Origin: an uncultured Methanosarcinaceae archaeon
GTDB lineage: Archaea > Halobacteriota > Methanosarcinia > Methanosarcinales > Methanosarcinaceae
Direction: 5' to 3'
DNA length: 64,000 bases
Assembly: GCA_963721455.1 (NCBI GenBank)
Contig: CAVRJG010000003.1
Coordinates: 32,001 to 96,000, forward strand
Part shown: positions 12,789 to 30,332 of the stretch, one piece after another
How positions within the stretch are numbered: the first letter of the stretch is position 1
Layout: the number at the start of each line of letters is the position of its first letter
Translations under genes and position numbers: made by a program
The notes under the pieces: generated by a model
What the model was told of the DNA's origin: nothing
Database searches by the model: none
The model's input: the letters and a program-made list of their open reading frames with translations, nothing else

Positions 12789-15215
12789 TCACCTTGCGAC
12801 ATATATTGTCCTGCTTGCAACATTTGATTTGCCGCCATTGGTTGCAGTTAATTTCACAGTGTAAAACCCTGTAGTTTTATAGATGTGACTTGGTTTTGAC
12901 TCGGTGGTTGTTGCACTATTGTCTCCAAAGTTCCACTTTATTGAGGCTGCGTTGACGGAGTTATCTGTGAATTTAACTGTGAGGGGAGCACGCCCAAACG
13001 TAGGGGTTGCTGTGAAGCTTGCTTTTGGCTCAGCAGATGCCGCAGTGACGGTTATTGTCTTGCTTGCGGTGTTAGTACCATCTGCGTTGCTTGCAGTCAG
13101 GTTAGCAGTAAATGTCCCTGCAGTAGCATATGTGTGTTCAGGATTTTGAGCCGTTGATGTTGTAGTTCCATCTCCAAAGTTCCATTTCCATCCGGTCGGA
13201 CTGTTAGTGGATTTGTCAGTAAACTTCACAGTAAGAGGAGTTGTTCCTTCGGTCTTATTTGCAGTGAAGTTTGCAACTGGTGGCGTAGGTACACGGTTTA
13301 CGGTGATGTCCATTGATTTTTCATTGCTGTGACCATCAGCGTTTGTTGCAACCAGTGTAACTGTGTATGTTCCCGCGCCATTGAATGTATGTTCAGGACT
13401 CTGAGCGGTTGAAGTACTTCCGTCTCCAAAGTTCCATGCCCATCCGGTTGGACTGTTGGTAGATTTGTCAGTGAACTTCACAGTAAGAGGAGTTGTTCCT
13501 TCGGTCTTATCTGCAGCGAAGTTTGCAACTGGCGGTGTCAGTACACTGTTTACGGTAATATCCATTGATCTCACATCGCTGGAACCACCAGCGTTTGTTG
13601 CAACCAGTGTAACATGGTATGTCCCTTCACCACTGAACGCGTGTACAGGATTCTGCTCGGTTGAAGTACTTCCATCCCCGAAGTTCCACTCCCATCTGTT
13701 TGGATTGTTGGTGGATGTGTCAATGAACTTCACAGTAAGATCTGCAGTAAAGTATGCAACTGGAGCTATTAGTTCGGATTTTGAGGCATAAACCGTATTT
13801 CCATCCGGGCCTATGTTAATTCTGTTTCCGTTAGGTTCCGGTTCATTAGAATAGTCCGATAAAGGATCTCCGGCATTGATGCATGGGGAACTTACGCTGT
13901 CATTTACCCAACCGCTCCCGTTCCATCGCCCTACTTTTGACTTTAAATGGTAATCATGGTTGTTTCTGTCTGCATACTGCGGATCTGCCTGTATATCCGT
14001 AGATGATGCCTCTACATTCAAATAATCGCCGCCGGCGTTATTATAGAAACAATTGTTCTGTAAAACAAAGGAGTGGGTGCCTGTAAGTAAATTCGATATG
14101 CCAGCTCCGTTTCCTCCCGCTGATGAGGATTGGGTAGTGTTTGTTATAATGTTATTTCTCGCCGTAATGACATATCCTGAGCCATCCAGAGCTGTAGAAT
14201 ACACATTTTTCTGTACAATTCCAGCTCCACAGGCTCCATCGATCACGTTATTTTCAATGGTAACGTTGAATCCATCGGACACGATCCCCCCTATTTCTTT
14301 ACGGCTGGAGTTGGTTCCGGTATCGTAGATTTGATTATGATGGATATGGACATTTGCCGAAGAATTGAGATAAGATCCTGATCCGAAGATCCAGATTCCA
14401 GAAAGTACAGTCCTGTATATCGTGTTGTTATACACCTCAATATCATCCATTACAGATGTTCCGTGCTTCTGAATTTCGATTCCTGCACCTCCTGAGCCTT
14501 CAGATGTGATATTATTGTTGTAGAAACTCACGTGGTTTGTGTTATAAACTCTCAGTCCACTGTTTGTGCTGCAGGTTATCCTGTTATTGTAGGCTTCCAC
14601 ATACAAGCTGTTGGTGGCATATAGAACATCATGTCCCAGTAAATATGCCTCATTATCATGGAAGCTTATATTAGAACAACTTCTAGTTTTTAGGCCATCT
14701 CCACGGTTATTGGTCAGATACATATCGTGTACATCAATATTCTGACAATTGCTCAAGTTGATAAGGTTATAGTAACCGCTTCCGTCCTTAACGTTAGTGT
14801 TTCCTTTGCGGTTTCCATCAATTGCAAAACCCTTGATATTAATATTATGGTTTCCGAAGCTGTCCATTTGCGTAATTATAGATTTTTCTATGGGCCAGCC
14901 TGCGTTATCGGCTAATTTGATCACAGCTGTGGAGTCCCCTTCAAGAGTGGTGTTGTTGCCAATCAGAAGAGTATCGTCTATAACGTATGTGAATGGCCCT
15001 TTAAGGTGAACAGTTGTATAACTAGCGTTTTCAGCCGCGGACTGAAGGGCCAGGTTAATCTGCACGTGATCATTTGTTCCATTACAATTAAAATCGCCAC
15101 TACCATCTCCCGCAACGTAGACCATTGATGCAGGGGTCATACAAAAAGCAGTAGGAACGCTTATTAGCATATAGAGACACATAAGGAAAGAGAGCATTAG
15201 TTTTCGATTTTTCAT
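12789..15215 (-). CDS. Cell-surface protein: disaggregatase-related right-handed beta-helix plus 4 PKD domains
   Basis: Signal peptide; VYVAGDGSGDFNC..DHVQIN start typical of Methanosarcina beta-helix proteins; DYHLKS..SPCINAG; WNFGDG repeats. Confidence 0.9.
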   Translation of the reverse strand: MKNRKLMLSFLMCLYMLISVPTAFCMTPASMVYVAGDGSGDFNCNGTNDHVQINLALQSAAENASYTTVHLKGPFTYVIDDTLLIGNNTTLEGDSTAVIKLADNAGWPIEKSIITQMDSFGNHNINIKGFAIDGNRKGNTNVKDGSGYYNLINLSNCQNIDVHDMYLTNNRGDGLKTRSCSNISFHDNEAYLLGHDVLYATNSLYVEAYNNRITCSTNSGLRVYNTNHVSFYNNNITSEGSGGAGIEIQKHGTSVMDDIEVYNNTIYRTVLSGIWIFGSGSYLNSSANVHIHHNQIYDTGTNSSRKEIGGIVSDGFNVTIENNVIDGACGAGIVQKNVYSTALDGSGYVITARNNIITNTTQSSSAGGNGAGISNLLTGTHSFVLQNNCFYNNAGGDYLNVEASSTDIQADPQYADRNNHDYHLKSKVGRWNGSGWVNDSVSSPCINAGDPLSDYSNEPEPNGNRINIGPDGNTVYASKSELIAPVAYFTADLTVKFIDTSTNNPNRWEWNFGDGSTSTEQNPVHAFSGEGTYHVTLVATNAGGSSDVRSMDITVNSVLTPPVANFAADKTEGTTPLTVKFTDKSTNSPTGWAWNFGDGSTSTAQSPEHTFNGAGTYTVTLVATNADGHSNEKSMDITVNRVPTPPVANFTANKTEGTTPLTVKFTDKSTNSPTGWKWNFGDGTTTSTAQNPEHTYATAGTFTANLTASNADGTNTASKTITVTAASAEPKASFTATPTFGRAPLTVKFTDNSVNAASIKWNFGDNSATTTESKPSHIYKTTGFYTVKLTATNGGKSNVASRTIYVAR

Positions 15216-16248
15216 TTATCGGCCTCGGTTATTATTATACAAGTCAAAAAATATTTAATATAACTCGACACACTTTGAGAATATATGCAGCATGTAATCA
15301 TAATATACTGTAGTGGAATTTTGAGTCCGTGTCTGCGGTATTTTTCAAAGTTAAGCTGAGAGTTCATCCCAAAACTCGAAATTTGGTTCTTGAGCCTTGC
15401 ATTTCGAATAATCAATCAAGCTCATGATCATGAAAACAATCCTGAAAATTCTTGACGATTAAGAATAAAATGGCTTTTGGGATAGGCTTGATCAGAAGCC
15501 TTTCCCGGACTCCACCTACAGTATAAAAGAACAGATGTCTTTAAACAATATAAAAATTTTGATTCAGTTTAGATATGAGAAGAATAATCGGCTTTGTAGA
15601 AAACCTATCTAAACGGACATGAAATTCTTCGAATAACAGACATAAAAAAATGAAACTATTATTCACCTTAACTTTTATGACTATTGATTTCCTCATTACC
15701 TTGGGCAGTAAGGTTGTCCACATTTTGGTTTTTCAAAACCGTACCTAAACTAATCAGTGAATTGCCATCGAAGGCTCAAATGTGACTCTGCTCACGCATG
15801 CTAAATTGGCCTTTGAGGCAATTCCACTGCCCAAACAAATTTGGTGATCTAATTTGATTGAAGTCATAACCAAAGCTTGTGGTTTAGACATTCACAAACT
15901 CTTTTTCATTGCCACAATTCTCAGTAGATCCGGTGAAAAGCAGCAACAACTTTTGATAGAAACGATGATGGAATTTTAGCCCTTAAAAAATGGGTTACGG
16001 TCTTCCCGTTTGCAAGAGTTTATGTTACTGTACCGGCGCTTGAGAAAAGAAGATTGATGATTGAAGTTGCCGGAAAATTTATTCACAACGTTGTCGATAA
16101 ATCAGGAAAACTAGCTTATGTATTGATACGAAAAGTGAGTAGATTCTAACCTAAAAAGTAAAGAACCGTTTTTTAAAACCTTAAAATGAAGGTTACAAGA
16201 AAATGCTGGTATCCCTAATTTCAATACTCTATTTGTCTTTGTAAGCCT

Positions 16249-16656
16249 TTATTTCACTACGACAGTCCCCTTCATAGAAGGATGGATCGAACAATCATAA
16301 TTATAGGTTCCCGCGTCTGTAAACAGGAATTCGTATGTGTCTCCTTCCTCAAGTACCTCGGACTCAAAAGCAGGCCCTCTAACGGTATGAGCAGTTGAAT
16401 CCATATTCTTCCATCTTACGGTATCACCTGTCGATATTGCTACAGACTGCGGGTTAAAGGCAGAATTCTGAATATCAACTTCGACAATCTTGCCTTCATC
16501 TATAGGTTGAGGCGTTACATCCGAAACCGGAGCTACAGGCGTTTCAACCGGAGTTACTACAGGCGTTTCTGCTGGAGTTGCCGGTTCATTTCCTGCACAT
16601 CCTATTGCCAGGAATATGCTAAGTAAGACCATGAAAATTACAGGTTCTTTTCTCAT
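16249..16656 (-). CDS. Plastocyanin/halocyanin-like blue copper lipoprotein
   Basis: Lipobox LAIGC; FNP..I..GDTV.W.N.D..AH; C-x2-H-x2-M (CSIHPSM). Confidence 0.9.
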   Translation of the reverse strand: MRKEPVIFMVLLSIFLAIGCAGNEPATPAETPVVTPVETPVAPVSDVTPQPIDEGKIVEVDIQNSAFNPQSVAISTGDTVRWKNMDSTAHTVRGPAFESEVLEEGDTYEFLFTDAGTYNYDCSIHPSMKGTVVVK

Positions 16657-17104
16657 TCTTTCCCCCCATGAAAAATAAGGTGCTTTATAATTAATATTTT
16701 GATTTTATAATAGTTCCTACCAGTTTCTGAACTCAGTTCTTTTTATGATTTAATGTATTGTGCCAGAGCTTCTGGAACACGCATCCTCAGTTAACTCAGG
16801 AAATTTCCCTGTTTTCAGGTTTTACTTTCTCCTGGATTATAAACTGAAGCCCTCTAAAAATAGAATTTCCGGATGTATGCAGTACCTGCCGGACAATTAT
16901 AAAAATAGTTTCAACCCATGACAGGAATAGGGTAATTTTATCTAAAAAAGTGAAGCCATTTTTGTAAAAATTTGTTTTATGGGCAGAATCCTGATCATTA
17001 CTGACTGTCACTTAATAATTAGCCTTGACTCAGAGTTACTGGATACTCTGCCCATATCTTATTTCTTTTCAGTTGCCTCGGCAGGTATTACCTGCCAGGA
17101 GGAG

Positions 17105-17410
17105 TTACTTGACTACAGTGGTCCTAGTTGCAGTAGTATTATTGCCTTTTATAGTGGTCCTGGCTACAGTAGTGTTGTTACCCTGTATAGTGGTCCTATT
17201 TACAGTAGTATTATTGCCCTCTATGGTGGTTCTGGTTACTTGTTTAGCCGGAGTTACTGCCTGAACCGGAGTTTCCTTTACAACTGTTTCCTTTGTTTCC
17301 TTTGTTTCCTTTACAACCGTTTCATTCGGAGCTTTCTCTTTCTGACCAGCGCATCCTATTGCGAGGAACACGCCGAGCAAAACTATCAATATAATCAGTG
17401 CTTTTCTCAT
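17105..17410 (-). CDS. Thr-rich lipoprotein with three RTTIxGNNTT repeats
   Basis: Lipobox LAIGC; multiple N-x-T sequons. Confidence 0.8.
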   Translation of the reverse strand: MRKALIILIVLLGVFLAIGCAGQKEKAPNETVVKETKETKETVVKETPVQAVTPAKQVTRTTIEGNNTTVNRTTIQGNNTTVARTTIKGNNTTATRTTVVK

Positions 17411-17412
17411 TA

Positions 17413-17611
17413 TTTTCCCCCATACAATATAAGTTGCATTATAATTAATATTTTAAATTATATTTAAATTCCTACTAGCTACTGAACATAGTTCTTCTTA
17501 TGATCTGTCGTTTTCCCCCCATAAAATATAAGTTGCATTATAATTAATATTTTAAATTATATTTAAATTCCTACTAGCTACTGAACATAGTTCTTCTTAT
17601 GATCTGTCGTA
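17413..17611. repeat. Tandem ~99-bp duplication of the lipoprotein upstream region
   Basis: ttcccccata.aatataagttgcattataatt...tgatctgtcgt occurs twice back to back. Confidence 0.9.
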
Positions 17612-18126
17612 TGGTACCATAATTTCTCTGAAAATAGAGATATTCAGTTAACTCAATGCACTTCTTTATCTTCAGTTTTCATATTCTTCTAAATTACGAA
17701 AAAAGAGTTTCTAAAAGAGAGGCGGCAGAAAATCATATTCAACCTTGATGATCAATTAGAATATCAATTTCACCTCATTTATAAGGAAATGGGGCGTAAA
17801 ATGATCTTAAAAAGTGAGGTCGTTTTTAAAGGCTTTTCGTTAAAGTGAGATTTTTCGACAATTCCGGTATTTCAAGCATCTAAATATCATTTGCCTTTGT
17901 ATCGATCTTACTTCTTCACTGTTATATTCCTATTACTGTATCGCGTGAATCGAATACTCGTAGAAGTGCCTTTTCGGTAAACACGAACTTATTTGTTTCT
18001 TATTCCGGTTGCCAAACGAAAATTCACCTCTGCCTTTTATGCATTTAAGAATTCTCATATAATAAGCGAATTGCGCTATAAAGCGTCCGGGCTAGAGGCA
18101 AAGCCCTGAGTCACCACTTAAACGAT

Positions 18127-18431
18127 TTAGTAACCTTTTCTAGGAGTTACTTTGATTACTCCGGTTCCGCTTGTATTATTTCCAGCTTGAGTCGGCTGTA
18201 TGAGTGCCTTTTTTCTTTGAGTACTACCTAAAATCTTAGTTACATTACCAGTTGCGCTTTGGTTAGTAGTGGTATAGTTTTCAGTATAATTTTCAGCCGG
18301 AGTTACTTCTGTCAACCGGAGTTACTGTCTCATTTGGAGCTTCACCTTTCTGACCAGCGCATCCTATTGCAAGGAATATACACTGAACAATACTAACAGA
18401 ATAACCAGTTCTTAACCAGTTCTTTTCTCAT
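18127..18431 (-). pseudogene. Frameshifted paralogous lipoprotein
   Basis: MRKE start and FLAIGCAGQKGEAPNET match 17105..17410; an 11-bp duplication (aagaactggtt) breaks the frame. Confidence 0.7.
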
Positions 18432-18687
18432 TATTTCCCCCACTTAAAATTATGTGCATTATTAACAGATTTGTAATTGATATCATGGTCTTATAACAAT
18501 TACTGCTAGATTCTGAACATAATTCTTCCTACAGGGTGGAAAATCGCTATACATTTAGATATTTCTTCCTTTCGGGTTTTATGAATGTATGTAAGATCCG
18601 GAATCTTTATTTTCTGCTTAGTTCTCCTTAAATTATAATACCGGGAATTCCAATATTATTAAATGACTTTTTTTTGGGGGGAGGTCA

Positions 18688-20051
18688 TGAAAATCAAATC
18701 CGTTAATCCTTACACTGAAGAAGTAAACTGGACATATGACTCATTTTCTTTCGGGGAATGTGAAATCCGGATTGAAAATTCCAGGGCTGCTTTTTCCGGG
18801 TGGAGTTCATTGTCTGTTGAAGAAAGGGTAAAATATTTCTCAAGGGCTGGCGAGGTGCTTCGGCAGAATACCGAAATCTATGCCGAGATTATTACGAAGG
18901 AAATGGGAAAACCTATCCGGCAGTCGAGAGGCGAGGTTCAGAAATGCGCCCGGCTCTGTGACTATTACGCAGAAAATGCGGCCGGGTTTCTGAAAGATGA
19001 GGTTGTGGATACTGAGGCTGAGAAAAGCTATGTAACTTTTGAGCCGCTTGGAGTGATTCTCGGGATCATGCCCTGGAATTTCCCGTTCTGGCAGGTATTC
19101 AGGTTTGCAGTACCTGCAATGTGTGCAGGAAATGTGTGTGTGGTCAAACACGCCTCGAATGTGCCAAGATCGGCACTGGAGATTGAGAAAGTCTTCCTGG
19201 AGGCTGGATTTCCGGAGCATGTTTTCAATACCCTGTTAATTGACTCGAAGACTGCCATGGAGATTATTGAAGAGGATATGGTGGATGGAGTCTCATTTAC
19301 AGGCAGCATAGGTGCAGGCTCGGAAATAGGAGAGCTTGTGGGGGGAGCGATAAAGCCGCTTGTACTGGAGCTGGGGGGGTCTGACCCTTTCATAGTGCTT
19401 GAAGATGCCGATATCGAGAAGGCTGCGCAGGTCGCGGTAAAGTCCCGTTTTCTCAATACCGGACAGAGCTGTATTGCTGCCAAGAGGTTTATCGTTGTAG
19501 AAGATGTTGTGGTGGATTTTATTGAGGCATTTGAACTCAATATTCAGGAACTGAAAATAGGGGACCCGATGGATGAAGAAACCGATATCGGACCTGTTGC
19601 AAAGAAGGAATTTGTCGAGAGTCTTGAGAAGGTCCTGAAAGACGCGAAAAAGAAAGGGGCAGAGCCTCAAATTTTCGGAGAGAAGCCTGAAACGGGCTTC
19701 TTTTTCAGGCCGACCCTTATCCCTGCAGCCAGTTCAGACATGAAGGTCTGCAATATGGAAGTTTTCGGACCTATTGCGCCGATAATCATGGCAAAGGACG
19801 AGAACGAGGCATTGGAAATCGCAAACTCCACAGAGTTCGGGCTTGGGGCCGAAGTCTGGTCCGGAAACCTGGAAAGGGCTGAAAGGCTGGCAAAAAGGAT
19901 CAGATCCGGATTTGTAGCTATCAATGGCATGGTTAAATCCGATCCGAGGCTTCCTTTTGGCGGGGTAAAGAAGTCCGGAGTAGGGCGAGAGCTTTCCCAC
20001 TATGGACTTAAGGAATTTGTGAATATCAAGACTGTCGTGGTTAACAAATGA
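18688..20051 (+). CDS. gabD: NAD(P)-dependent succinate-semialdehyde dehydrogenase (SSADH1/GabD1 type)
   Basis: MPWNFPFWQVFRF, FTGS, LELGGSDPFIV, NTGQSCIAAKR, EVFGP; GGAGG RBS before ATG 18688. Confidence 0.85.
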
Positions 20052-20159
20052 AAGCTCCACAGGGCCTGAGAACTGATTGAAGCTTTATATTGAAAAGACT
20101 CTCCAGAGTTGATTAGATAACCTGTTTAAGCTTGATAATTTGTTTAAGCTTGACCAGTA

Positions 20160-20305
20160 AACTTACCTCAAGCTTAACAAACAACTTACCTCAAGCTTAA
20201 CAAACAACTTACCTCAAGCTTAATAAACAACTTACCTCAAGCTTAATAAGTAAACTAATTTAATTTAATTTAATTTAATTTAATTTAATTTAATTTAATT
20301 TAATT
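20160..20305. repeat. Four copies of a 23-bp tandem repeat followed by (TAATT)10
   Basis: Unit aacttacctcaagcttaa(c/t)aaac, no spacers. Confidence 0.95.
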
Positions 20306-20352
20306 ACTTGAACAAGAGACATAACAATTGAATTATATTTTGAGAGGTTTTT

Positions 20353-21987
20353 ATGAAAGCTTCGGATCTTTTCGTTGCCCAGCTTGAAGAAGAAGATGTG
20401 GAGTATATTTTCGGACTGCCAGGCGAAGAAAACCTTGACTTGCTTGAATCTCTCAGGATTTCCAGAATCAAATTGATCGTAACAAGGCACGAACAGGCTG
20501 CAGCGTTTATGGCTGCGACCTACGGAAGGCTGACAGGGAAACCCGGGGTTTGTTTTTCAACTCTTGGTCCGGGAGCTACTAACCTGGTCACAGGCGTTGC
20601 CCAGGCCCAGCTTACAGGAGCTCCTTTTATCTCCATATCCGGGCAAAAGGCCCTGGCTGACAACTGGCAGGCACGTTTCCAGCTTGTAGACGTTGTCAGG
20701 ATGATGGAGCCGCTCTGTAAAAAAGCCGTATCCATAACTGATCCGGGAATGATCCCTACAGTGATCCGGAACGCCTTCAAACATGCGGAAGCCGAAAGGC
20801 CGGGAGCTGTGCACATTGAACTTCCTGAAGATGTGGCTGAAGAAGAGACTGACGCAGTGGTGCAGAAGCGGAGCGAAATTAAAATTCCTTATCCTGATCC
20901 CGGAGCTGTCAAAGAAGCTGCGGCTATGATCTGTGAGGCTAAAAACCCCCTGATTATGGTTTCCTCAGGAGCGAACCGAAAATCGGTAACTGGGGAACTC
21001 GAAGATTTTGTCAGAAGGACAGGTATCTACCTTGTACATACCCAGATGGGGAAAGGTGTTGTTCCGGATGACTGCGTTCACAGCCTTTTTGCCACCGGAA
21101 TCCATGCCAGAGACTACGTTAACTGCGGAATTGACGGAGCTGACCTTATTATCACTGTGGGCTACGATATAGTGGAATACCCTCCCTACCTGTGGAACAG
21201 GAAACTGGACAAGCAGATCATAAATATCGATTTTGTAGAGTCCGTGCCTGACAGGTATTTTAACCCCACAGTAGAAATCATTGGAGATGTCGCCTCTTCA
21301 ATCAGGGAACTTGCTGCAAGCATTCCGGGAAAACGGGAGTTTCCGACCTTTGAAAACACAAGGCATTTCATTGAGGAAAAAATAAATGCTATTGCCAGGA
21401 AAAGCTACCCTCCTATCCCGCAGGCGGTAGTTCAGAACGTCAGGAAGGTGCTTGGAAGGGAAGATATAATCACGCTGGACAACGGGATTTATAAGCTCTG
21501 GTTCTCTCGCCTTTACAAGACCTATGCCCCCAACACTATTCTCCTTGACAATGCCCTTGCAACTATGGGCGCAGGGCTCTCTGCAGGGATTACTGCAAAA
21601 CTTCTTCATCCGGAACGCCGCGTGCTTGCAGTCTGTGGGGACGGGGGTTTTATGATGAACTGCCAGGAGCTCGAGACCGCGGTTCGCTATGGAATCCCTG
21701 TGGTTGTCCTTATCCTCAATGACAATGGCTTTGGCTTTATTAAATGGAAGCAGAAAAAGATGCATTTTGAGGACTTCGGGCTGGACTACGGAAACCCTGA
21801 TTTCTCCCTTTTTGCCAGGAGTTTCGGGGCTGAAGGTTTCAGGATTAAAGAAGGTGATGACCTTGCAGAAGTCCTGGAGAGAGCTTTTGCCCTGAATAAA
21901 GTGGCGGTCATTGAATGTCCTATCGACTATTCCGTAAACTACGAGACTTTCTCGATCGAACTGGGAAAGCTTACATGTAAATTCTGA
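20353..21987 (+). CDS. ThDP-dependent acetolactate-synthase-like enzyme; candidate 2-oxoglutarate decarboxylase
   Basis: FGLPGEENL, RHEQAAAFMA, LGPGATN, GDGGFMMN..ND; no small subunit nearby; adjacent to SSADH. Confidence 0.8.
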   Translation: MKASDLFVAQLEEEDVEYIFGLPGEENLDLLESLRISRIKLIVTRHEQAAAFMAATYGRLTGKPGVCFSTLGPGATNLVTGVAQAQLTGAPFISISGQKALADNWQARFQLVDVVRMMEPLCKKAVSITDPGMIPTVIRNAFKHAEAERPGAVHIELPEDVAEEETDAVVQKRSEIKIPYPDPGAVKEAAAMICEAKNPLIMVSSGANRKSVTGELEDFVRRTGIYLVHTQMGKGVVPDDCVHSLFATGIHARDYVNCGIDGADLIITVGYDIVEYPPYLWNRKLDKQIINIDFVESVPDRYFNPTVEIIGDVASSIRELAASIPGKREFPTFENTRHFIEEKINAIARKSYPPIPQAVVQNVRKVLGREDIITLDNGIYKLWFSRLYKTYAPNTILLDNALATMGAGLSAGITAKLLHPERRVLAVCGDGGFMMNCQELETAVRYGIPVVVLILNDNGFGFIKWKQKKMHFEDFGLDYGNPDFSLFARSFGAEGFRIKEGDDLAEVLERAFALNKVAVIECPIDYSVNYETFSIELGKLTCKF

Positions 21988-22068
21988 TACGCGGAATTTC
22001 TGCATGGGCTTGCGGGTTAATTTACGCAAACCCTGTACCGTTAAAAATCAAACCCAGGGGGAAAATAA

Positions 22069-23862
22069 TTGGGAGGCGAAGGGAAAAAAGCAGGGTATCC
22101 TATCCATTCACATGATGTGGTCATAGTCGGGGCAGGACTGACAGGGCTCCGTGCAGCAATCGAGACTGTGGATCAGGGGCTTGACACGGCCATTATTTCC
22201 AAGGTGCACCCTCTCCGCTCCCATTCCGTGGCAGCCCAGGGAGGGATAAATGCAGCCCTCGGGAATGCCGTGGCTGAAGATTCCTGGGAAGACCACGCAT
22301 TTGATACGGTCAAGGGTTCGGATTATCTGGCTGACCAGGATGCAGTGGAAATCATGTGCAAAAACGCGCCTGCCGCAGTAATCGAACTTGAACATTTCGG
22401 GACCGTCTTTTCCCGGTTTCCTGACGGCAGGATCGCTCAGAGGCCTTTTGGAGGAGGGATGTTCCCAAGAACCTGCTATGCTGCAGACAGGACAGGGCAT
22501 AACATTCTGCACACGCTCTATGAACAGCTTATAGGCAGGGAGAAAAATAAAAAGTTTAAGGGTGGTAAGCTTACCTTTTATGAAGAGTTCTTTGTGACCT
22601 CCCTGGTAAAAGCCGGAGAATCTTCTTTTGAAGATGGTTCGGGGAAAGAGGAAAGGTGCGCAGGCTGTACTGCAGTAAACATCGCCAATGGGAGCCTGCA
22701 TGGTTTTACCTGCCATTCCCTGCTCCTTGCGACGGGAGGTTTTGGGAGGCTTTTTGCCCGTTCAACAAATGCCCTGATTAACACCGGAGACGGAGCTTCT
22801 CTGGCGCTCCGGGCAGGCGTACCTTTAAAGGACATGGAATTCGTGCAGTTTCACCCTACCACACTGTACGGCACAAATATCCTTATCACTGAAGGGGCAA
22901 GAGGAGAAGGAGGCTATCTTCTGAACAGCAGAAACGAACGCTTCATGGAGAAGTATGCCCCCGCATCCATGGAACTTGCTCCAAGGGATATAGTTTCCAG
23001 GGCCGCTCAGCAGGAAATAGATGAAGGCAGAGGATTTGAGGGCGGTTACGTGCTCCTTGACCTCAGGCACCTGAAAGAGAAAAAAATTGCAGAACGCCTG
23101 CCCGGGATAAGGCTTATTTCCCTGGACTTTGCAGGAGTTGACCCTGTTGAAGCTCCGATTCCCGTGCAGCCAGGCCAGCACTATTCCATGGGAGGGGTTT
23201 CGGCAGGAAATGACCTTGCAACTGAACTGCCCGGACTATATGCAGCAGGGGAATGCTCCTGCATTAGCGTGCATGGGGCAAACCGGCTCGGGGGCAATTC
23301 ACTGCTTGAAACTGTGGTTTTCGGAAAGCTTGCAGGGCAGGAAATTGGAAAGTCTTTCCCGGCTTCAGGAACCTGGGACGGGAAAGGGGCCGAACATGCT
23401 GTCCTTGAATGCCTGTCCGGAGAGGATGCGAGGATAAAAGCACTGCTTGCCAGGGAATCCGGAATAAAAATGCATGGTCTCAGGGATGAACTGAAGAATA
23501 TGATGTTTGAGTACTTCGGGGTCTTTCGCGAAGGAAAGAGGATGGAAAAAGGGCTGGAAAAACTCATTGAACTCAAAGCCCGTTACCCTGAAGTCTATAT
23601 CGATAACAAATCCGCTCTATTTAACTACGCACTTATTTATACACTCGAACTTGAGGGATTATTTGATATCGCAGAAGCTGTTGCCAGGGGTGCCATTGCC
23701 AGGCAGGAAAGCCGGGGGTCTCATTCAAGGGCTGACTACCCGGATAGGGATGACGAGAGGTTCCTCTACCATACGATCTACAGGCTAAAAGGCGGAAAAC
23801 CTGCGCTTGAATCCCTGCCTGTAAGGCTCGGGAAATTCCCTGTAAAGGAGCGTGTATACTGA
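22069..23862 (+). CDS. sdhA: Succinate dehydrogenase/fumarate reductase flavoprotein subunit
   Basis: [16 protein letters not shown] (covalent-FAD His), [29 protein letters not shown]. Confidence 0.95.
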
Positions 23863-24629
23863 TGAAATTGAAGGTATTCCGCTTTGATGGGGAAACCGGG
23901 GAATCCCACTACGATACCTTTGAAATCGAACCCTCGGCAGGGATGACAGTACTTTCCGCGCTGTTCAATATCCAGGAAGAACTCGATGATTCCCTTGCTT
24001 TCCGCTATTCCTGCAGGGGGGCAGTCTGCGGGAGCTGTGCAATGCTAATTAATAAAATTCCAGGGCTTGCCTGCCGGACCCGGATCGAATCCCTACTCAA
24101 AGGCGAAGGGAAAATAAAGCTGAAGCCTTTTCCGGGAATGGAAGAGACTGTTTTCCGGGACCCTGGAAATGAGGTACTTGTAGAACCCCTTCCTTCCCTG
24201 CCGAAAATAAAGGACCTTATCGTGGACATGGATAAATTCTTCGAATTCTACAGGGCAATCGAGCCGACCTTTAAACCGGCTTCAAAATCCTCTGAAATGG
24301 AGCAGCTCATGCAGCCTGATGCCGTAAAGGAGCTTGAGAAGTACACAAACTGCATACTCTGTGCTGCCTGCGTGGGTTCCTGTCCGGTTTCGGGAAAAGA
24401 CAAGGATTTTCTGGGCCCTGCTGCTCTTGCAAAGCTATACAGGTTCCATATCGATCCACGTGAGGCAGATGATGAATCCAGACTCATGCTTGCGAACAGT
24501 AAATGCGGCTGGTGGGGCTGTGAGTTTCATGCCAATTGTAAGGCTGTCTGCCCGAAAGGCGTTCCACCTGTTGAGGCAATCGGAAAGGCCAGAAGGGAAA
24601 TCAGAGGACCTGGGAAGGAACCCGAGTAA
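23862..24629 (+). CDS. sdhB: Succinate dehydrogenase/fumarate reductase iron-sulfur subunit
   Basis: SCRGAVCGSC (2Fe-2S), CILCAACVGSCP, CEFHANCKAVCP; TGATG overlap with sdhA. Confidence 0.95.
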   Translation: MKLKVFRFDGETGESHYDTFEIEPSAGMTVLSALFNIQEELDDSLAFRYSCRGAVCGSCAMLINKIPGLACRTRIESLLKGEGKIKLKPFPGMEETVFRDPGNEVLVEPLPSLPKIKDLIVDMDKFFEFYRAIEPTFKPASKSSEMEQLMQPDAVKELEKYTNCILCAACVGSCPVSGKDKDFLGPAALAKLYRFHIDPREADDESRLMLANSKCGWWGCEFHANCKAVCPKGVPPVEAIGKARREIRGPGKEPE

Positions 24630-24678
24630 AAAATCCTGAAGCTTTTGAATGAGAATTTTCTGAGGTGAGGTTATAAAT

Positions 24679-26064
24679 CTGAAAACCCGAATCGAGAAGG
24701 ATTCACTGGGAGAAATGGAAGTCCCGGAAAATGCCTATTTTGGCATCCAGACCCAGCGGGCTCTTTGTAATTTTCCTGTAAGCGGCCACAGGGCAAGGCC
24801 GGAATTCGTCAGGGCATACGTCCTGGTAAAAAAGGCAGCAGCTCTTGCTAATATGGAGCTTGGGGGTCTTGACAGGGAGAGAGGAAATGCCATCGTGGCA
24901 GCAGCCGAGGAAGTCCTTAATGACCTCAGCGGACGGTATTCGGGCCAGTTTCCTGTGGACGTGTTTCAGGCAGGTGCAGGTACTTCCTTTAATATGAACA
25001 TTAATGAGGTTCTAGCTAACCGCGCTCTCGAAATACTGGGATGGAAACGAGGAGATTATAATTTCCTGAGCCCTAACGACCATGTTAACCGGGCCCAGTC
25101 AACTAATGATACTTTTCCAACTGCTTCCTACATAGCCATCATTTTTGCGGCTGACAGGCTTCTTGATGTACTCTCTTCTCTTTCCAGAGCTTTTCGGGCA
25201 AAAGCAGATGAGTTTTCGGGAATCCCTAAGTCAGGCCGCACACATCTTATGGATGCCGTACCTGTGACGCTTGGCGACGAGTTCGGAGCTTATTCTGCTG
25301 CGCTTTTGAGGGCTTCGCGCAGGATAAAAGAACGAAGAGATGATCTTCTCGAACTTCCTTTAGGAGGGACTGCAACAGGAACAGGGGCAAATACAGATCC
25401 GGGGTATCGGGAACTTGTAATCCCAATACTTTCCGCCCTTTGCAAACTGCCTTTCCAAAGGGCGGTTGACAGCTTCGAAGCCCTGCAGAGCCGGTCCCAA
25501 CTTGCCGCCTTTTCAGGGGCTCTCCGGGAACTTGCACTTGAACTTATAAGGATAGCTAATGACCTCAGGCTCCTTAATGCCGGCCCCACCTCCGGAATTT
25601 CCGAAATTGAACTTCCGGCTGTACAGCCTGGATCATCCATGATGCCAGGAAAATATAATCCTGTAATGGCCGAATGCCTGGACATGATAGGGTTCCAGAT
25701 TGTGGGCAATGATACAGCAGTCGCTCTTGCAGCTCAGGCAGGGCAGCTCGAACTCAATGTTATGACCCCTGTAATGACATCCAATATTCTTGTATCCATT
25801 TCCCTGCTCACGAATTATCTGCCCGTTTTTCAGGAACGCTGTGTAGAAGGGATTAAGGCGCATGAGGACAGGTGCAGGGCTTACCTTGAGCTAAATCCTG
25901 TCCTGGTAACCTTCCTTGCCCCGAAGATCGGGTATCTTAAGGCTGCGGAGATTGCAAAAGAGGTGCTGGATAAGAAGATGCCTGTTAAGGAAGTTCTGGT
26001 AATGGAAGGGATTTTGAGCAAAGAAGAAGCTGATGAACTGTTCAAAATTGAAAAATTATTATAA
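24679..26064 (+). CDS. Class II fumarase / aspartate ammonia-lyase family protein, probable CTG start
   Basis: GAGTSFNMNINE, QSTND, GRTHLMDA, GSSMMPGKYNP; conserved RIEKDSLG lies upstream of the ATG, in frame from CTG 24679, 8 nt after GAGGTGAGG. Confidence 0.9.
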   Translation: MKTRIEKDSLGEMEVPENAYFGIQTQRALCNFPVSGHRARPEFVRAYVLVKKAAALANMELGGLDRERGNAIVAAAEEVLNDLSGRYSGQFPVDVFQAGAGTSFNMNINEVLANRALEILGWKRGDYNFLSPNDHVNRAQSTNDTFPTASYIAIIFAADRLLDVLSSLSRAFRAKADEFSGIPKSGRTHLMDAVPVTLGDEFGAYSAALLRASRRIKERRDDLLELPLGGTATGTGANTDPGYRELVIPILSALCKLPFQRAVDSFEALQSRSQLAAFSGALRELALELIRIANDLRLLNAGPTSGISEIELPAVQPGSSMMPGKYNPVMAECLDMIGFQIVGNDTAVALAAQAGQLELNVMTPVMTSNILVSISLLTNYLPVFQERCVEGIKAHEDRCRAYLELNPVLVTFLAPKIGYLKAAEIAKEVLDKKMPVKEVLVMEGILSKEEADELFKIEKLL

Positions 26065-26438
26065 CTTGCTTGATTCCAGAGAATACTGCTGATTTTGTGC
26101 CTTCAAAAGCATCATAATGAGATAATGGGAAAATAATCGAGTACAGAAAAGTAATCGAGTACAGAAAAGTGGGCGGCAGAAAAGTTAAGAGTGAGACGTT
26201 TTTCCCCCATTAATCCAATCAGGTTATTGGTGGGATTCTTTATTTAGCTTGATTATAAAAATTATAGTTACGTCGTCTCGGTTCTTTTGAATTGAATTTC
26301 AGGCTTTTAAGTTTATGATTCTTAAAAAGTCCTTAAGTTTGTGGTTCTGACACTGTGATTCTTCAAAACCACTGGTTAATTGAAGCCACAGGTTAAGGTA
26401 GCGCTATGTAAAGCAAATAAGGTAATGTTTAATGTATC

Positions 26439-26792
26439 TTAATTAAGGTACCCTTTTCTTTCAAGCCATTCAATCTGGGGCCTTGTGTATTTCCAGGTAA
26501 CGTCGGCTTTTGAATTCTGAACTTCCCACGGATTGGCTATGACAACATCGCCTTCGCGGATCCACATTCTTTTTTTCTTGGAACCGGGAATCCTGCCCAT
26601 TCGGACTACTCCGTCCATGCACTGCAGTGTAACTCTTTTTGAGCCAAGTAAACTTGCTACTGTTGCCAGGACTTCGTTTCTGTCTTTACGGGGAGTTCGT
26701 ACCCTTGTTATTTCCTGGGGGCCGTCTCCTGAGCCTGTCGAACTGGTAGATCCTAATTTTCTTTTCCTAATAGTGCTTCTGTAATTAGCCAG
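26439..26792 (-). CDS. eif1a: Archaeal translation initiation factor aIF1A, copy 1 (missing from ORF track; CTG start)
   Basis: (M)[10 protein letters not shown]...RVRTP...[33 protein letters not shown]...[16 protein letters not shown]; GGAGG RBS 7 nt before CTG. Confidence 0.95.
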
Positions 26793-27063
26793 ATTAATTC
26801 CTCCGATGCTGATTTTTTTAGCTTAATAATTTCGGTAATAAATCCTTTTTGCTAGTTTCGATTCTTAATTCCGGTTGTTTTTCCTTTTTTCGCGAGTGGT
26901 ATCAAATATCTGCTATTTCCGAATAGATGTAATTAATTTATCATGAATTCGGTTCCAGGACGCATCCGCAGAAATAGAAGGCGAAAAACAGAAAGATTAA
27001 AACCATTAGTGAAAAATGAATTGAGTGTTAATCCAAAAAATTAACACTCAATACAGATTATCT

Positions 27064-27270
27064 TTAAAACTTCCTGTGGTTAGGAAGACATTCTCTGCAG
27101 TAAACCGGCCGTCCTTCAGTTGGCTTGAACGGAACTTCAGTCTCAACACCGCAGTCAGAACAGGTAACTTTGGTCATTTCCCTGGGGCCGCTGTTGCCGC
27201 CTCTGAAACCTCCACGGTTGCTGTCTCTGTTGCCGCCGCGGAAAGAATTTCCTCTGTCATTAAAACCCAT
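27064..27270 (-). CDS. CxxC-x17-CxxC zinc-finger protein with RGG-rich N-terminus, copy 1
   Basis: CSDCG..VPFKPTEGRPVYCRECL; GGAGGTG RBS. Confidence 0.9.
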   Translation of the reverse strand: MGFNDRGNSFRGGNRDSNRGGFRGGNSGPREMTKVTCSDCGVETEVPFKPTEGRPVYCRECLPNHRKF

Positions 27271-27422
27271 ATTTGTTTCACCTCCGCTTATAGCGGGTAA
27301 TTATAGAGTAAAAACAAGATTGTATAAAATTTATTGATTAAAAACAAAAATGGAGTTTTTAATAACAGATTATACGTCTCTTTATTTTCAACTATATCTA
27401 CACAGTCATTTAAATATATAAA
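27271..27422 (-). promoter_or_regulatory. TATA box plus conserved structured 5' leader (also at 27992-28140 and 29475-29626)
   Basis: Nested inverted repeats with compensatory changes across three copies; CCGCT-nnn-AGCGG hairpin overlapping the RBS; TATA at a constant offset. Confidence 0.75.
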
Positions 27423-27783
27423 TCTTCCTATGAAAACACAGAGTAATGGTGGTAAAATCCTCTCAAGCGGACGTCTATCAAGCGAATATCTATAATCTGC
27501 ACTTCGAATTTAAGTATATAAACTTGAGATAATTATTATCAGTCCACGGACTGCAGGAAATACCAATCTGCTGGAAAATCAGATAACTTTGCTGATTTAA
27601 AATCTTTGCTGATTTAAATGATTCTAAGGAAAGTTCAAACTCATTATTCTATGAAATATATAACAGTACACTTGTTCAATAAAAGCATAATATAAAAGAA
27701 GCCGTCCGTTTGGCCTGCCCAAGCTAAGCGAAACGGACATAATTGTCAAGTGAAATTTTCCGAATGAACTGGTATTAGCAATA

Positions 27784-27991
27784 TTAATACCTGTTTTCTC
27801 TGGGTTTTCTGTGGTTAGGAAGGCACTCTCTGCAGTAGACTGGTCTGTCGGGGTCAGGTTTGAAAGGTACCTGAGTTTCAGCACCGCAGTCAGAACAGGT
27901 TGCGTTGTGCATTTCCTTCGGGGCTCCGAAACCTCCACGGTTGCTGTCTCTTGCCGCCGCGGAAAGAATTTCCTCTGTCATTAAAAGCCAT
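27784..27991 (-). pseudogene. CxxC-x17-CxxC protein copy 2 with a 2-bp deletion near the N-terminus
   Basis: ggcaagagac versus ggcaacagagac in paralogs; ATG 27991 is out of frame with the zinc finger. Confidence 0.75.
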
Positions 27992-28466
27992 TTTATTTTC
28001 ACCTCCGCTTACAGCGGATAGTCAATAGTTTAAAAATAAGACTGATATAACTCTTTGATTAAAAACAGAAGGTAGTTTTTAATAACAGATTATATATCTC
28101 TTTATTTTTAATGTTCTTAGTATACAATCAAATTATATAAGTTTTACTCCTAAAAATCAGGAACGCGCAAAAAATGCTTTCTACTTTAAGAGTTACCCTT
28201 GTTAAAGCCAATCTTTCAGATTCTTTTCTGACAGATGTGGTAATTGCCAGTTAAACTCCACGAGGAAGGCAAGGATAAGTTGAAAAGGTTAGAGGTAAGC
28301 GCTTGAAGGAAGGAACACGGAAAAGGTTAAAGGTAAGCGAAGGTAAGCGCTTGAAGGAAGGAACATGGAAAAGATGAATAGGGGTTTAACCTAAAACTGG
28401 TTAAAACCGGATTATTGTCAGGACAATATAATTTTTATTTAAACTTTACTGTGATATTTCAGGAAT

Positions 28467-28811
28467 TTACTTCAGGTAACCTTTTCTTTCAAGCCATTCG
28501 ACCTGAGGCCTTGTGTACTTCCAGATTACATCGGCTTTGGAATCCTGAATCTCCCAGGGAGCGACGATTACTACATCTCCCTCGTGGATCCACATTTTCT
28601 TATTCTTGGACCCCGGAATTCTACCCATTCGGACTATACCGTCCATACACTGCAGTGTGACTCTTTTTGAGCCTAAGAGGGTTCCTACGGTTGCCAGGAC
28701 TTCATGATTCTCCTTACGTGGAGTACGCACCCTTGTTACTTCCTGAGTAGCCGGTGCGGCGCTTCCAGTTCCTGCTTTTCTCTTCCTGATATTGCTTCTA
28801 TAGTTTGCCAG
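28467..28811 (-). CDS. eif1a: Archaeal translation initiation factor aIF1A, copy 2 (CTG start)
   Basis: In-frame extension (M)[10 protein letters not shown] to CTG 28811 after GAGG; same OB-fold motifs as copy 1. Confidence 0.95.
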
Positions 28812-29267
28812 GTTAATTCCTCGTAGTTTTATCAGTTTAAATTATTTTGTCACGATTTGCTTATGTTTTATCATATTTTTCGGATTTACTATGTTCACCA
28901 ATTCTTTAGGTACTTTGATGTGAAGGTTCATAAATGGATAAGAATTAAAAAACCTCTAAAAAATATGAACTCTCTGAAAAATCCAAAATCTCAGGAAACC
29001 TTTAGATTTTAAAGATCCTTCAGTTACTCCATAACCCCTGGACTGAGAGTTTGCTTCAAAATCCTTCAGAGTAATTCTATATTCTATGATAAATTTTAAC
29101 TATGTATAATGGATATCTATGTCCCCACTCTATAACTAAATTAATAACTATTTAAGAGTTCCTATGTCCTTTACCTTCACTTAAGGTAAAAAACACAGAA
29201 TAAAAGGTGGAGTAAGTGTTGATATAATTAATTTGTAAATCAACACCTTCCATTGAGAAATTTGAAC

Positions 29268-29474
29268 TTAGAACTTCCTGTGGTTAGGCAGGCAGTCTCT
29301 GCAGTAAACCGGCCTTCCTTCTGTCGGCTTGAATGGAACTTCAGTCTCAACACCGCAGTCAGAACAGGTAACTTTGTGCATTTCCCTGGGGCCGCTGTTG
29401 CCGCCTCTGAAACCTCCACGGTTGCTGTCTCGGTTGCCGCCGCGGAAAGAATTTCCTCTGTCATTAAAACCCAT
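29268..29474 (-). CDS. CxxC-x17-CxxC zinc-finger protein, copy 3
   Basis: 66/68 aa identical to copy 1. Confidence 0.9.
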   Translation of the reverse strand: MGFNDRGNSFRGGNRDSNRGGFRGGNSGPREMHKVTCSDCGVETEVPFKPTEGRPVYCRDCLPNHRKF

Positions 29475-29817
29475 TTTGTTTCACCTCCGCTTATAGCGGA
29501 TACATGTATTCAATAAAAACATGATCGGATATAACTTATTATTTAAAAACAAAAATGGAGTTTTTAATAACAGATTATATGTCTCATTATTTTTACTAAT
29601 GATAAAACCATTTTTATGCTATATAAGATTAATCCATAAGAACCGGAAGAAATAGAAGCATATTCCTCAAAGAGAAAAGGGCATGGGGTGACATATCAAA
29701 CATACTAATAATACTAATAATTATAATAATAATAATAATAAATTGAGAGGGGAAACACTGTTACAAGAAGGTTTCCATTGATAATGATTAAAATCAAACG
29801 TTTCAGAATTTTTGGAA

Positions 29818-29912
29818 TTAGAACTTCCTGTGGTTAGGAAGACATTCTCTGCAGTAAACCGGCCTTCTTTCAGTTGGCTTGAATGGAACCTGCGTTTCAA
29901 CACCACAATCAG
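29818..29912 (-). pseudogene. 3' remnant of a fourth CxxC-x17-CxxC gene
   Basis: SDCGVETQVPFKPTERRPVYCRECLPNHRKF*; 5' part and leader missing. Confidence 0.8.
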
Positions 29913-29951
29913 AAAGAAGATAAAAATAAAGAGACGATAAATAATAGATTG

Positions 29952-30278: not shown

Positions 30279-30332
30279 AGTAAGCCTGAAGACCTGTCGG
30301 CTTCAAAACCAATATTGAAATGAATTGAGGAC

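Follow-up and report, generated by a model that had tools for sequence, protein, structure and literature searches.

A five-gene cluster that may connect 2-oxoglutarate with the C4 pool in a relative of Methanosarcina

In textbooks, Methanosarcina exemplifies an oxidative tricarboxylic acid (TCA) branch that ends at 2-oxoglutarate (2-OG), a compound that also signals nitrogen status. Does a cluster of five genes in an uncultured Methanosarcinaceae archaeon lead beyond this end point? The cluster lies in the 64,000-nt stretch of DNA analysed here (the window; positions 32001–96000 of contig C3), part of a 3.94-Mb genome of 73 contigs that is 98.5% complete and has Methanosarcina species as its nearest named relatives. 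An earlier note, made from the sequence of the window, had read the genes as consecutive steps from 2-OG through succinic semialdehyde (SSA), succinate and fumarate to malate or aspartate. The lack of a complete TCA cycle is described as 'similar to all described methanogens' in the accessible part of a 2022 paper (PMC9478090).

Five open reading frames (ORFs) on the plus strand within 18663–26064 encode an aldehyde dehydrogenase (ALDH), a thiamine diphosphate (ThDP)-dependent enzyme, the flavoprotein SdhA, the iron-sulfur protein SdhB and a class II lyase, with intergenic gaps of 301, 81, −1 and 85 nt. The five co-directional genes of the earlier note are all present, at 18687–26064; its start at 18688 was one base off. 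Pfam matches are Aldedh (461 bits) for the ALDH, the TPP_enzyme N, M and C domains for the ThDP protein, FAD_binding_2 and Succ_DH_flav_C for SdhA, Fer2_3 and Fer4 for SdhB, and Lyase_1 and FumaraseC_C for the lyase. GC content (0.48–0.51) and GC content at third codon positions (GC3; 0.45–0.53) are uniform across the five genes and fall among the values for other genes of the window. The order of the five genes recurs in eight fetched loci of other genomes (L005, L006, L011, L014, L088, L089, L090 and L097), and the SdhA gene adjoins the ThDP gene in 14 of the 16 SdhA-positive genomes of the genus, all 16 of which also have the ThDP gene; the arrangement is therefore not due to chance. We give about equal credence and doubt to the reading in which the five genes form an accessory cluster that joins the 2-OG end of the oxidative branch, in the forward direction, to the C4 pool.

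The aldehyde dehydrogenase and the ThDP enzyme

The first gene (18687–20051, plus strand, 454 aa, within an ORF of 18663–20051) encodes an ssaD-like NADP-dependent succinic semialdehyde dehydrogenase (SSADH), an assignment that is well supported by homology. Its start is most likely the ATG at 18687, 24 nt inside the ORF, because the Shine–Dalgarno motif GGAGGT lies just upstream and the alignment to solved SSADHs begins exactly at this codon. Among 42 NCBIfam models the best is NF006915 (NADP-SSADH, 512 bits), and the seven best of 14 solved-structure matches are all named SSADH, led by 4it9/3vz1 at 428 bits. Residue roles were taken from the accessible text of work on the Cyanothece/Synechococcus SSADH (PMC7510979), in which the SSA carboxylate lies beside Ser419, Trp135 and Arg139 (structure 3VZ3), Cys262, Glu228 and Asn131 are catalytic, and Lys154 and Ser157 are NADP+ determinants. 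Aligned to 4it9/3vz1, the window ALDH is identical at W130, N131, W135, R139, K154, S157, E228, C262 and the serine equivalent to S419, and the stretches MPWNFPFWQVFRFA and INGMVKSDPRLPFGG are wholly identical to those of the solved SSADH. In a tree of 33 rows, built by a quick method, the ALDHs of Methanosarcina, other Methanosarcinales and cyanobacteria form one SsaD-type clade with a support of 100 by the Shimodaira–Hasegawa-like approximate likelihood ratio test (SH-aLRT), far from the ALDHs that follow ThDP genes in other bacteria. The earlier naming of this gene as an SSADH holds, with all substrate, cofactor and catalytic residues described for the solved cyanobacterial enzyme kept.

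The second gene (20353–21987, plus strand, 544 aa) belongs to the OgdA/KGD family of ThDP-dependent 2-oxoacid decarboxylases. Its product scores 804 bits on NF006187 (cut-off 509) and falls under the cut-off on both AlsS (450 versus 510) and the biosynthetic acetohydroxyacid synthase (AHAS) model TIGR00118 (354 versus 538). Six of six relatives exceed the NF006187 cut-off, three of them cyanobacterial (881–887 bits) and three from other bacteria (830–865 bits), and an SSADH-like gene lies just upstream in two of the three scored cyanobacterial relatives. Because the cyanobacterial relatives score so highly and two adjoin an SSADH-like gene, NF006187 is the family of cyanobacterial 2-oxoglutarate decarboxylase (2-OGDC), despite its label 'acetolactate synthase large subunit'. 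The Microcystis member, in the accessible text of its description (PMC10418658), acts on 2-OG only, among six 2-oxoacids assayed. The annotation 'acetolactate synthase large subunit' of the ThDP gene, which stands everywhere in the public records seen (every name being acetolactate synthase), is of practical concern: it is probably wrong here, and probably so for the whole NF006187 family.

The GLPGEENL signature on which the earlier note had relied occupies residues 21–28 of the ThDP protein; PGEENL is common to all seven aligned NF006187-family sequences, unlike the genome's own IlvB, which has GYPGGQII in this place. The note was also right that no ilvN or ilvC lies beside the ThDP gene, whose neighbours are the ALDH gene and sdhA. 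Both are found with the genuine ilvB (31% identical to the ThDP enzyme, 1069 bits on NF004710) on contig C54, in the order leuA-ilvB-ilvN-ilvC. A role of the ThDP enzyme as the biosynthetic acetolactate synthase is ruled out by its TIGR00118 score together with this genuine ilvBNC set.

Residues of the Microcystis enzyme (MaKGD), as given in the accessible text, were mapped via a Microcystaceae sequence, with an offset of −3 that matched 17 of 17 residues. E47, D430 and D457 of the ThDP enzyme align with E50, D435 and D462 of MaKGD; the catalytic Glu and the GDG...N diphosphate motif of ThDP enzymes are both present. The six 2-OG contacts proposed for MaKGD (Q254, V382, K386, A408, L467 and K471) derive from docking only (PMC10418658), and K381, A403 and K466 of the ThDP enzyme are identical to contacts in this set. 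K381 and K466 are the two lysines docked onto 2-OG in the Microcystis enzyme (PMC10418658), and are replaced by Q and W in the genome's own IlvB. V382, A384 and H385 of MaKGD are replaced by N, I and Y, and Q254, Y465 and L467 by H, F and F. Decarboxylation of 2-OG is the most likely function and seems reasonably probable from sequence comparison, mainly because of the partner gene and not the active site.

Trees of the ThDP enzymes (47 and 46 rows) were made by a quick method with SH-aLRT support only and were rooted on the single own IlvB, which has a very long branch. The Methanosarcina-type enzymes form a clade (support 99–100), the sister of which is a group from Desulfuromonadales and Pseudomonadota (100). 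The ALDH-adjacent enzymes of other Methanosarcinales branch as sister to both groups (96), and the resulting clade lies beside one of cyanobacteria plus Clostridia/Bacteroides (99); three smaller lineages are also present, and the basal part is unresolved. In the comparison with cyanobacterial OgdA that the earlier note had proposed, the enzyme falls in a clade that neighbours the cyanobacterial one and is not part of it.

Two other groups of ThDP genes were observed in these searches. At five of six loci of the bacterial sister clade (Desulfuromonadales and Pseudomonadota; L022 and L024–L028), the ThDP gene is followed by an uncharacterised ALDH for which the best model is the methanogen lactaldehyde dehydrogenase, under its cut-off; these loci look like a separate, undescribed pair of ThDP decarboxylase and ALDH. 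A second NF006187-like paralogue (570–584 aa, 41–44% identical to that of the window) occurs on its own long tree branch in eight of the 59 genus genomes, with no SSADH-like gene seen within ~3–4 kb on either side at the loci L084 and L085.

An ALDH at least 40% identical to that of the window lies upstream on the same strand at 26 of the 36 cyanobacterial loci that extend 1.5 kb or more upstream, at 12 of 17 Methanosarcina-type loci and at none of 21 loci from other bacteria. It was also found at five of six fetched loci from other Methanosarcinales genera, where the distance between the two genes is only 7–9 nt. The window has in this position a spacer of 301 nt (20052–20352) that contains two tandem repeats, 3.8 copies of a 23-nt unit at 20160–20246 and ten of TAATT at 20256–20305, and blastn of the window indicates little conservation of the spacer between species. 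In four of the five Methanosarcina-type loci that lack this ALDH, the ThDP gene is damaged (an in-frame TAG in one, multiple stops and frameshifts in two, and an internal deletion in one).

Across 59 species genomes of the genus, the window-type ThDP gene is intact in 45, interrupted or partial in seven and absent from seven. An order-level survey of 251 genomes located the window-type gene (at least 76% identity) in two neighbouring genera as well (six of six and two of two genomes) and a 42–46% identical form both in a further six genera of that family and, within another family, in one genus (6 of 49 genomes); none of the 54 genomes from four other families of the order had the gene. The ALDH–ThDP pair is thus old and widespread in the Methanosarcinales. 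This spread agrees with the remark of Zhang and Bryant (2011), known from the accessible text of PMC12214013, that 2-OGDC/SSADH-related genes exist in 'some methanogens'. A single in-frame TAG was observed in an otherwise intact ThDP gene (genome G043; locus L016, codon 17) and in one likewise intact sdhA (genome G027). Some TAG codons are read as pyrrolysine in Methanosarcina, and these relatives could be cases of read-through instead of pseudogenes.

The sdhA–sdhB–aspA cassette

The third gene, sdhA/frdA (22069–23862, plus strand, 597 aa), starts with TTG, with no ATG ahead of the FAD-binding GAGLTG motif, and the start of the fourth, sdhB/frdB (23862–24629, plus strand, 255 aa), overlaps its stop codon. 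SdhA scores 729 bits on TIGR01812 (cut-off 567) and contains the motif with the covalent-FAD His, HPT, RGEGG and a further catalytic motif. SdhB scores 233 bits on NF004616 (cut-off 228), and its Cys motifs, Cx4Cx2Cx11C, Cx2Cx2Cx3CP and Cx5Cx3CP, are of the 2Fe-2S, 4Fe-4S and 3Fe-4S types. Judged by these motifs, SdhAB is a real succinate/fumarate oxidoreductase module and is predicted to be catalytically intact. Among solved chains SdhA is closer to the succinate dehydrogenase flavoprotein 1nek_A (505 bits) than to the fumarate reductase flavoprotein 1kf6_A (429 bits), and among NCBIfam models to sdhA_forward (648 bits) than to fum_red_Fp (536 bits). The best solved match of SdhB is a fumarate reductase iron-sulfur protein, at 140.6 versus 138.3 bits; the protein has VSGKD at the position of SYWWN in the mitochondrial chain and an insertion of ~20–25 residues after the 2Fe-2S domain.

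No anchor-like ORF was found in 26064–29883 or elsewhere around the cluster. Because no membrane anchor was detected, the direction 'succinate to fumarate' is an assumption; of the corresponding step in the earlier note, the enzyme with its intact motifs stands and the direction does not follow. Seven ORFs with CCG domains are encoded in the genome, all on other contigs. The idea of a CCG-type (SdhE/TfrB-like) partner confined to SdhA-positive genomes was rejected, CCG counts being alike in genomes with and without SdhA.

The fifth gene (24715–26064, plus strand, 449 aa) encodes an aspartase-like class II lyase. It passes NF008909, the aspartate ammonia-lyase subfamily model (576 bits, cut-off 510), and fails the strict models of both aspA (TIGR00839; 509 versus 681) and fumC (TIGR00979; 466 versus 665). 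Solved aspartases match it at 440 (1j3u), 426, 414, 408, 404 (1jsw) and 398 bits, and the best fumarase, 1vdk, at 395 bits. In the alignment it shares with 1j3u the motifs NPVM.E, after the SS loop, and THL.DAVP; class II fumarases presumably have NPTQCE and DATP in place of NPVM.E and DAVP. Records from Methanoregulaceae, Thermoplasmata, Methermicoccaceae and Methanobacterium include relatives at 65–72% identity under the name aspartate ammonia-lyase, fumarate hydratase is the name of a few Methanosarcina entries, and a two-subunit class I fumarase, over its cut-off, is encoded elsewhere in the genome. By these family and motif matches the protein is likely to be an aspartase rather than a fumarase, so that one half of the earlier designation 'fumarase/aspartase' is retained and a plain fumarase is not.

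Comparison by blastn with SdhA-less relatives delimits sdhA-sdhB-aspA as a presence/absence cassette at 21988–26255 on the plus strand. In three loci without SdhA (L004, L013 and L017), homology to the window ends at ~21988 and restarts at ~26255–26438, and the flanks are kept with or without the cassette, with the cupredoxin gene on the upstream side and, on the downstream side, the eIF-1A/zinc-finger repeats and an SMR gene. SdhA relatives (E ≤ 1e-100) occur in 16 of the 59 genus genomes and in 11 of the 39 of high quality; two of the 16 have in-frame stops. M. acetivorans has no match to the SdhA model, and M. thermophila is among the cluster-bearing species, judging by the source names of lyase matches. 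The full cluster is found in a sister genus (L097) and at a deep-branching KYL-1 locus (L014). One locus (L007) is a deletion remnant, in which a 250-nt piece of sdhA is fused to the end of sdhB and followed by an intact aspA, and the two SdhA-positive genomes outside the 14 (L086 and L087) hold a second copy consisting of the ALDH gene, the last ~340 nt of the ThDP gene, sdhA, sdhB and aspA, with a normal ALDH–ThDP pair at the home locus (L091). The remnants, the relocated copies, the kept flanks and the occurrences in the sister genus and at the KYL-1 locus together point to an old cluster with repeated losses of a dispensable sdhAB-aspA add-on. The gene order, which the earlier note had made a test of its reading, is conserved in a minority of species (16 of 59).

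Horizontal transfer of the cassette was considered and is unsupported: GC and GC3 are uniform, no flanking repeats were found, and SdhA identity does not exceed 53% beyond the group, where the nearest matches belong to a mixture of lineages (an MSBL1 archaeon, Acidiferrobacter, Eggerthellaceae and Peregrinibacteria).

Contigs from four public sequencing runs, one of them probably DNA, were compared with the window. Contig fragments of the wetland RNA library X1 match parts of the ThDP gene, sdhA (in two pieces), sdhB and the lyase gene at 99–100% identity and a depth of 2–10, with depths of up to 49 in the downstream eIF-1A/zinc-finger region. The RNA runs X2 and X3 contain parts of the ALDH gene, the ThDP gene and sdhA at 90–99% identity, and the ALDH gene is covered only there. 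Coverage of the cluster is patchy, at a depth of ~1–10 versus 29–139 over the neighbouring eIF-1A/zinc-finger genes. Carry-over of DNA is possible in RNA libraries, gaps in the coverage carry no information, and the fragments are a weak sign of transcription that is neutral on an operon.

Carbon flow through the cluster

Read forward, the ThDP enzyme would convert 2-OG to SSA, and the SsaD-type dehydrogenase, a step well supported by homology, would oxidise SSA to succinate with NADP+. The anchorless SdhA/SdhB would then interconvert succinate and fumarate, an enzyme type established by its motifs, in a direction and with a redox partner that are not. The aspartase-like lyase would, by its family, interconvert fumarate plus ammonium and L-aspartate, giving 2-OG to SSA to succinate to fumarate to aspartate overall. 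Fumarate could alternatively pass to malate and oxaloacetate through a class I fumarase and a malate dehydrogenase (MDH) encoded elsewhere. The first two steps would be irreversible because of the decarboxylation, and since sucC (succinyl-CoA synthetase beta) was not found in the genome, succinate would have no other visible fate than SdhAB.

Citrate synthase (419 bits versus a cut-off of 421) and AcnA are encoded side by side on contig C46, and the alpha and beta subunits of the class I fumarase and MDH in the same genome. On paper, all steps of a closed cycle except isocitrate dehydrogenase thus have a candidate gene, and such a gene set is unexpected for a methanogen. The closure suggested in the earlier note is supported to that extent, with isocitrate dehydrogenase not identified and the direction of Sdh assumed. 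A closed oxidative TCA cycle in some Methanosarcina and the sister genus, built on a 2-OGDC/SSADH bypass and on an anchorless succinate dehydrogenase (SDH) that passes electrons to a methanogen-specific acceptor, seems unlikely. The heterodisulfide of coenzymes M and B (CoM-S-S-CoB) could serve SdhAB as an acceptor near equilibrium at sub-millimolar thiol, by our own estimate. Were such a cycle real, it would allow oxidation of acetyl units, or rebalancing of the C5/C4 pool and of the 2-OG nitrogen signal, by a route unexpected in methanogens.

Several observations weigh against the forward reading, some of them at the level of single enzymes. The ALDH stays under the equivalog cut-off of NF006915 (512 versus 730 bits). 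The ThDP enzyme lies outside the cyanobacterial clade and is reached by long branches (0.87 and 0.77 changes per column), and only 8 of the 14 mapped MaKGD residues, and 3 of the 6 docking-derived contacts, are identical in it. The bacterial sister clade of the ThDP enzyme pairs with a different, lactaldehyde-dehydrogenase-like ALDH (361–431 bits, under cut-off) and may act on another substrate. The 2-oxoglutarate decarboxylase of the earlier note is thus backed by the NF006187 score and the ALDH partner, and weakened by the tree position and the contacts.

Others concern the locus and the pathway. The first two genes are kept apart by the repeat-filled spacer of 301 nt; no RNA contig bridges two genes in the patchy coverage, the sole bridging piece (21970–22175) coming from the run that is probably DNA; and sdhA is absent from 43 of the 59 species genomes, which makes the cassette dispensable. 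SdhB has no CCG domain besides Fer2_3 and Fer4, and Sdh_cyt (PF01127) is unmatched in the 98.5% complete genome even at an E value of 0.1, in a search that did not include the FrdC/FrdD families. CCG matches, compared as per-genome totals in 35 genomes at least 95% complete, show no excess, with a mean of 11.8 in 9 SdhA-positive genomes versus 10–16 in 26 SdhA-negative ones. The three Iso_dh paralogues are LeuB, one protein assigned only to the isopropylmalate/isohomocitrate subfamily and one that passes no model. The succinate/fumarate couple has a potential of about +30 mV, compared with about −165 mV for methanophenazine, −140 mV for CoM-S-S-CoB and −340 mV for coenzyme F420. Oxidation of succinate would be uphill, because these known methanogen carriers lie far below +30 mV, and a soluble SdhAB cannot tap the membrane potential because it has no membrane part. 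In sum, gene order, the ALDH kept in relocated copies and the SDH-like SdhA favour the forward direction, and thermodynamics and the lack of an anchor speak for the reverse.

An alternative arrangement, possible if on balance doubtful, has two arms that converge. The aspartase would deaminate aspartate and SdhAB would be a soluble fumarate reductase, so that an oxidative arm (2-OG to SSA to succinate, giving NADPH) and a reductive arm (aspartate to fumarate to succinate, using reducing equivalents) would meet at succinate as the end product, serving redox-balanced stripping of nitrogen from glutamate/aspartate or the disposal of electrons. With the potentials given above, all known methanogen carriers would be able to reduce fumarate, and aspartases are usually catabolic. 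The absence of an anchor is as in soluble fumarate reductases, and SdhB, with its narrow preference for a fumarate reductase among solved structures, is without the SYWWN of the ubiquinone-reducing mitochondrial chain. No sucC is present, and the ALDH–ThDP pair alone, the state in most species, already stops at succinate; an AgcS-family amino-acid carrier is encoded in the same window (50835–52211). Two arms would, however, yield one product for which there is no known use or exporter, and SdhA prefers forward succinate dehydrogenases to fumarate reductases in both comparisons. SdhA also has a Gln ahead of the GG in its flavin motif, which we take, from work on E. coli SdhA/FrdA, to go with succinate oxidation. 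The gene order, moreover, is colinear with the forward pathway, and the ALDH gene stays with sdhAB-aspA in the two relocated copies.

It is quite unlikely that the genes have no functional link and that an ssaD-ogdA pair merely shares the locus with a separate sdhAB-aspA cassette, which might, for example, recycle fumarate from purine and arginine synthesis. The cassette does behave as a clean presence/absence block, missing from 43 of the 59 genomes; locus L007 retains aspA with most of sdhA and sdhB lost; and many other archaea have lyases 65–72% identical, with no such context known for them. Yet it adjoins the ThDP gene in 14 of 16 genomes, with the same order in the sister genus and at the KYL-1 locus, the product of the ALDH–ThDP pair is the substrate of SdhAB, and the five genes are alike in GC and GC3.

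Another substrate of the ThDP enzyme is very unlikely, whether it would be a catabolic acetolactate synthase or a decarboxylase for longer dicarboxylic 2-oxoacids (2-oxoadipate or 2-oxosuberate, for example), with the ALDH acting on the corresponding omega-carboxy aldehyde and the products feeding the pimelate/biotin or coenzyme B branches. Such a substrate would suit the public name 'acetolactate synthase', the N/I/Y in place of the Microcystis active-site triad V382/A384/H385 and the non-SSADH aldehyde dehydrogenase that partners the sister bacterial clade. Methanogens make 2-oxosuberate, and to our knowledge no enzyme has been assigned to its non-oxidative decarboxylation in them. These points are outweighed by the AlsS and AHAS scores under cut-off with the real ilvBNC elsewhere, by an ALDH that retains every SSA-binding residue described for the solved SSADH, by the downstream sdhAB, which suits a C4 product, and by the pair being missing or decayed in 14 of the 59 genus genomes, which makes an essential coenzyme pathway a poor fit.

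Surroundings of the locus and relation to known systems

Downstream of the cluster, repeated pairs of small genes occupy 26439–29982 on the minus strand, a block that is kept in the same place in relatives. It comprises ORFs of the eIF-1A family at 26439–26618 (N-terminally short) and 28467–28730, and at least three treble-clef zinc-finger ORFs with RGG-rich N-termini at 27064–27270, 27784–28002 and 29268–29474, with a fragment at 29818–29982. This region has the greatest depth (29–139) among the contigs of the RNA libraries. Upstream of the cluster, divergent genes for small secreted proteins share a repeated promoter and signal-peptide module. The module, of ~100–200 nt, is present in three to four copies within 16558–18531, including a 99-nt tandem duplication at 17413–17610 (98% identical), and consists, on the minus strand, of a promoter region, a G-rich ribosome-binding site, an ATG and the start of a lipoprotein-like signal peptide. 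Copies head the cupredoxin gene (16249–16656) and a 101-aa ORF (17105–17410) with no Pfam match; a plus-strand ORF at 16979–17467 is probably spurious.

Elsewhere the window contains large PKD-domain surface proteins, a disaggregatase-related protein, a DDE transposase and a stand-alone MtrA-like ORF (7354–15215, minus strand; 34003–35436 and 32288–32866, plus strand). The AgcS-family carrier, on the minus strand, scores 499 bits, over its cut-off, and an M13 PepO-like endopeptidase at 2091–4184 (plus strand) 307 bits, under its cut-off; both lie at too great a distance from the cluster to be linked to it without expression data. An Rfam scan of 16000–30500 matched no family, and scans for bacterial-consensus promoters and terminators, a consensus inapplicable to archaea, gave no hits above those in shuffled sequences.

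Already known are the OgdA/SsaD bypass of cyanobacteria and, in the accessible literature, a one-sentence remark on related genes in some methanogens. A literature search, with most subscription journals outside it, returned no sdhAB, no sdhAB-aspA extension and no complete TCA gene set in Methanosarcina, and no 2-OGDC/SSADH pair tested in a methanogen. If the proposed pathway is correct, a sizeable minority of Methanosarcina species has steps that are missing from the methanogen citric acid cycle. Genome-scale metabolic models would gain these steps, 13C-labelling results would need a different interpretation, and the draining of the 2-OG nitrogen signal would have to be seen differently. A further question raised by the cluster is which electron partner an anchorless complex II pair would use among carriers that are all of low potential.

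The lyase has the Lyase_1 fold, the GSSxMPxKxN loop and the FumaraseC_C domain in common with AspA/AspB and FumC, and passes the AspA subfamily model NF008909. It differs from them in failing the strict equivalogs, in the mere 45 bits that separate the best solved aspartase from the best solved fumarase, and in an N-terminus that is ~12–14 residues shorter than in the AspA and FumC models.

With Complex II (SdhABCD/FrdABCD), SdhAB shares the covalent-FAD His, the catalytic residues and the three Cys cluster motifs. In contrast to Complex II, the searches of cluster, window and genome revealed no cytochrome b gene and no other anchor gene, SdhB is without the aromatic quinone-site stretch and has the insertion of ~20–25 residues, and SdhA is at most 53% identical to outside relatives. 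TfrAB of cytochrome-free methanogens is likewise an anchorless pair of a flavoprotein and an iron-sulfur protein, and a plausible fumarate reductase. TfrB, however, has a C-terminal HdrB-like CCG part that SdhB does not have, the Tfr models score far under cut-off here (TfrA 458 versus 718; TfrB, NF004898, 141 versus 385), and the third cluster motif of SdhB is of the 3Fe-4S type (Cx5C).

The cyanobacterial OgdA/SsaD bypass (SynPCC7002_A2770/A2771; Zhang and Bryant 2011) shares with the locus both protein families, NF006187 and the SsaD clade, and the two-gene arrangement with the ALDH gene upstream; the cyanobacterial pair has been termed the ogdA ssaD operon (PMC5160925). The host here is likewise without 2-OG dehydrogenase or succinyl-CoA synthetase, with no sucC in the genome. 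Unlike cyanobacterial OgdA, the ThDP enzyme belongs to a long branch of its own and carries N/I/Y for V/A/H next to a conserved lysine, and its host, unlike cyanobacteria, is a strict anaerobe without a high-potential quinone. Whereas sdhA and sdhB of Synechococcus 7002 are at separate loci (A2569 and A1094), here sdhA, sdhB and the aspartase gene are joined to the pair.

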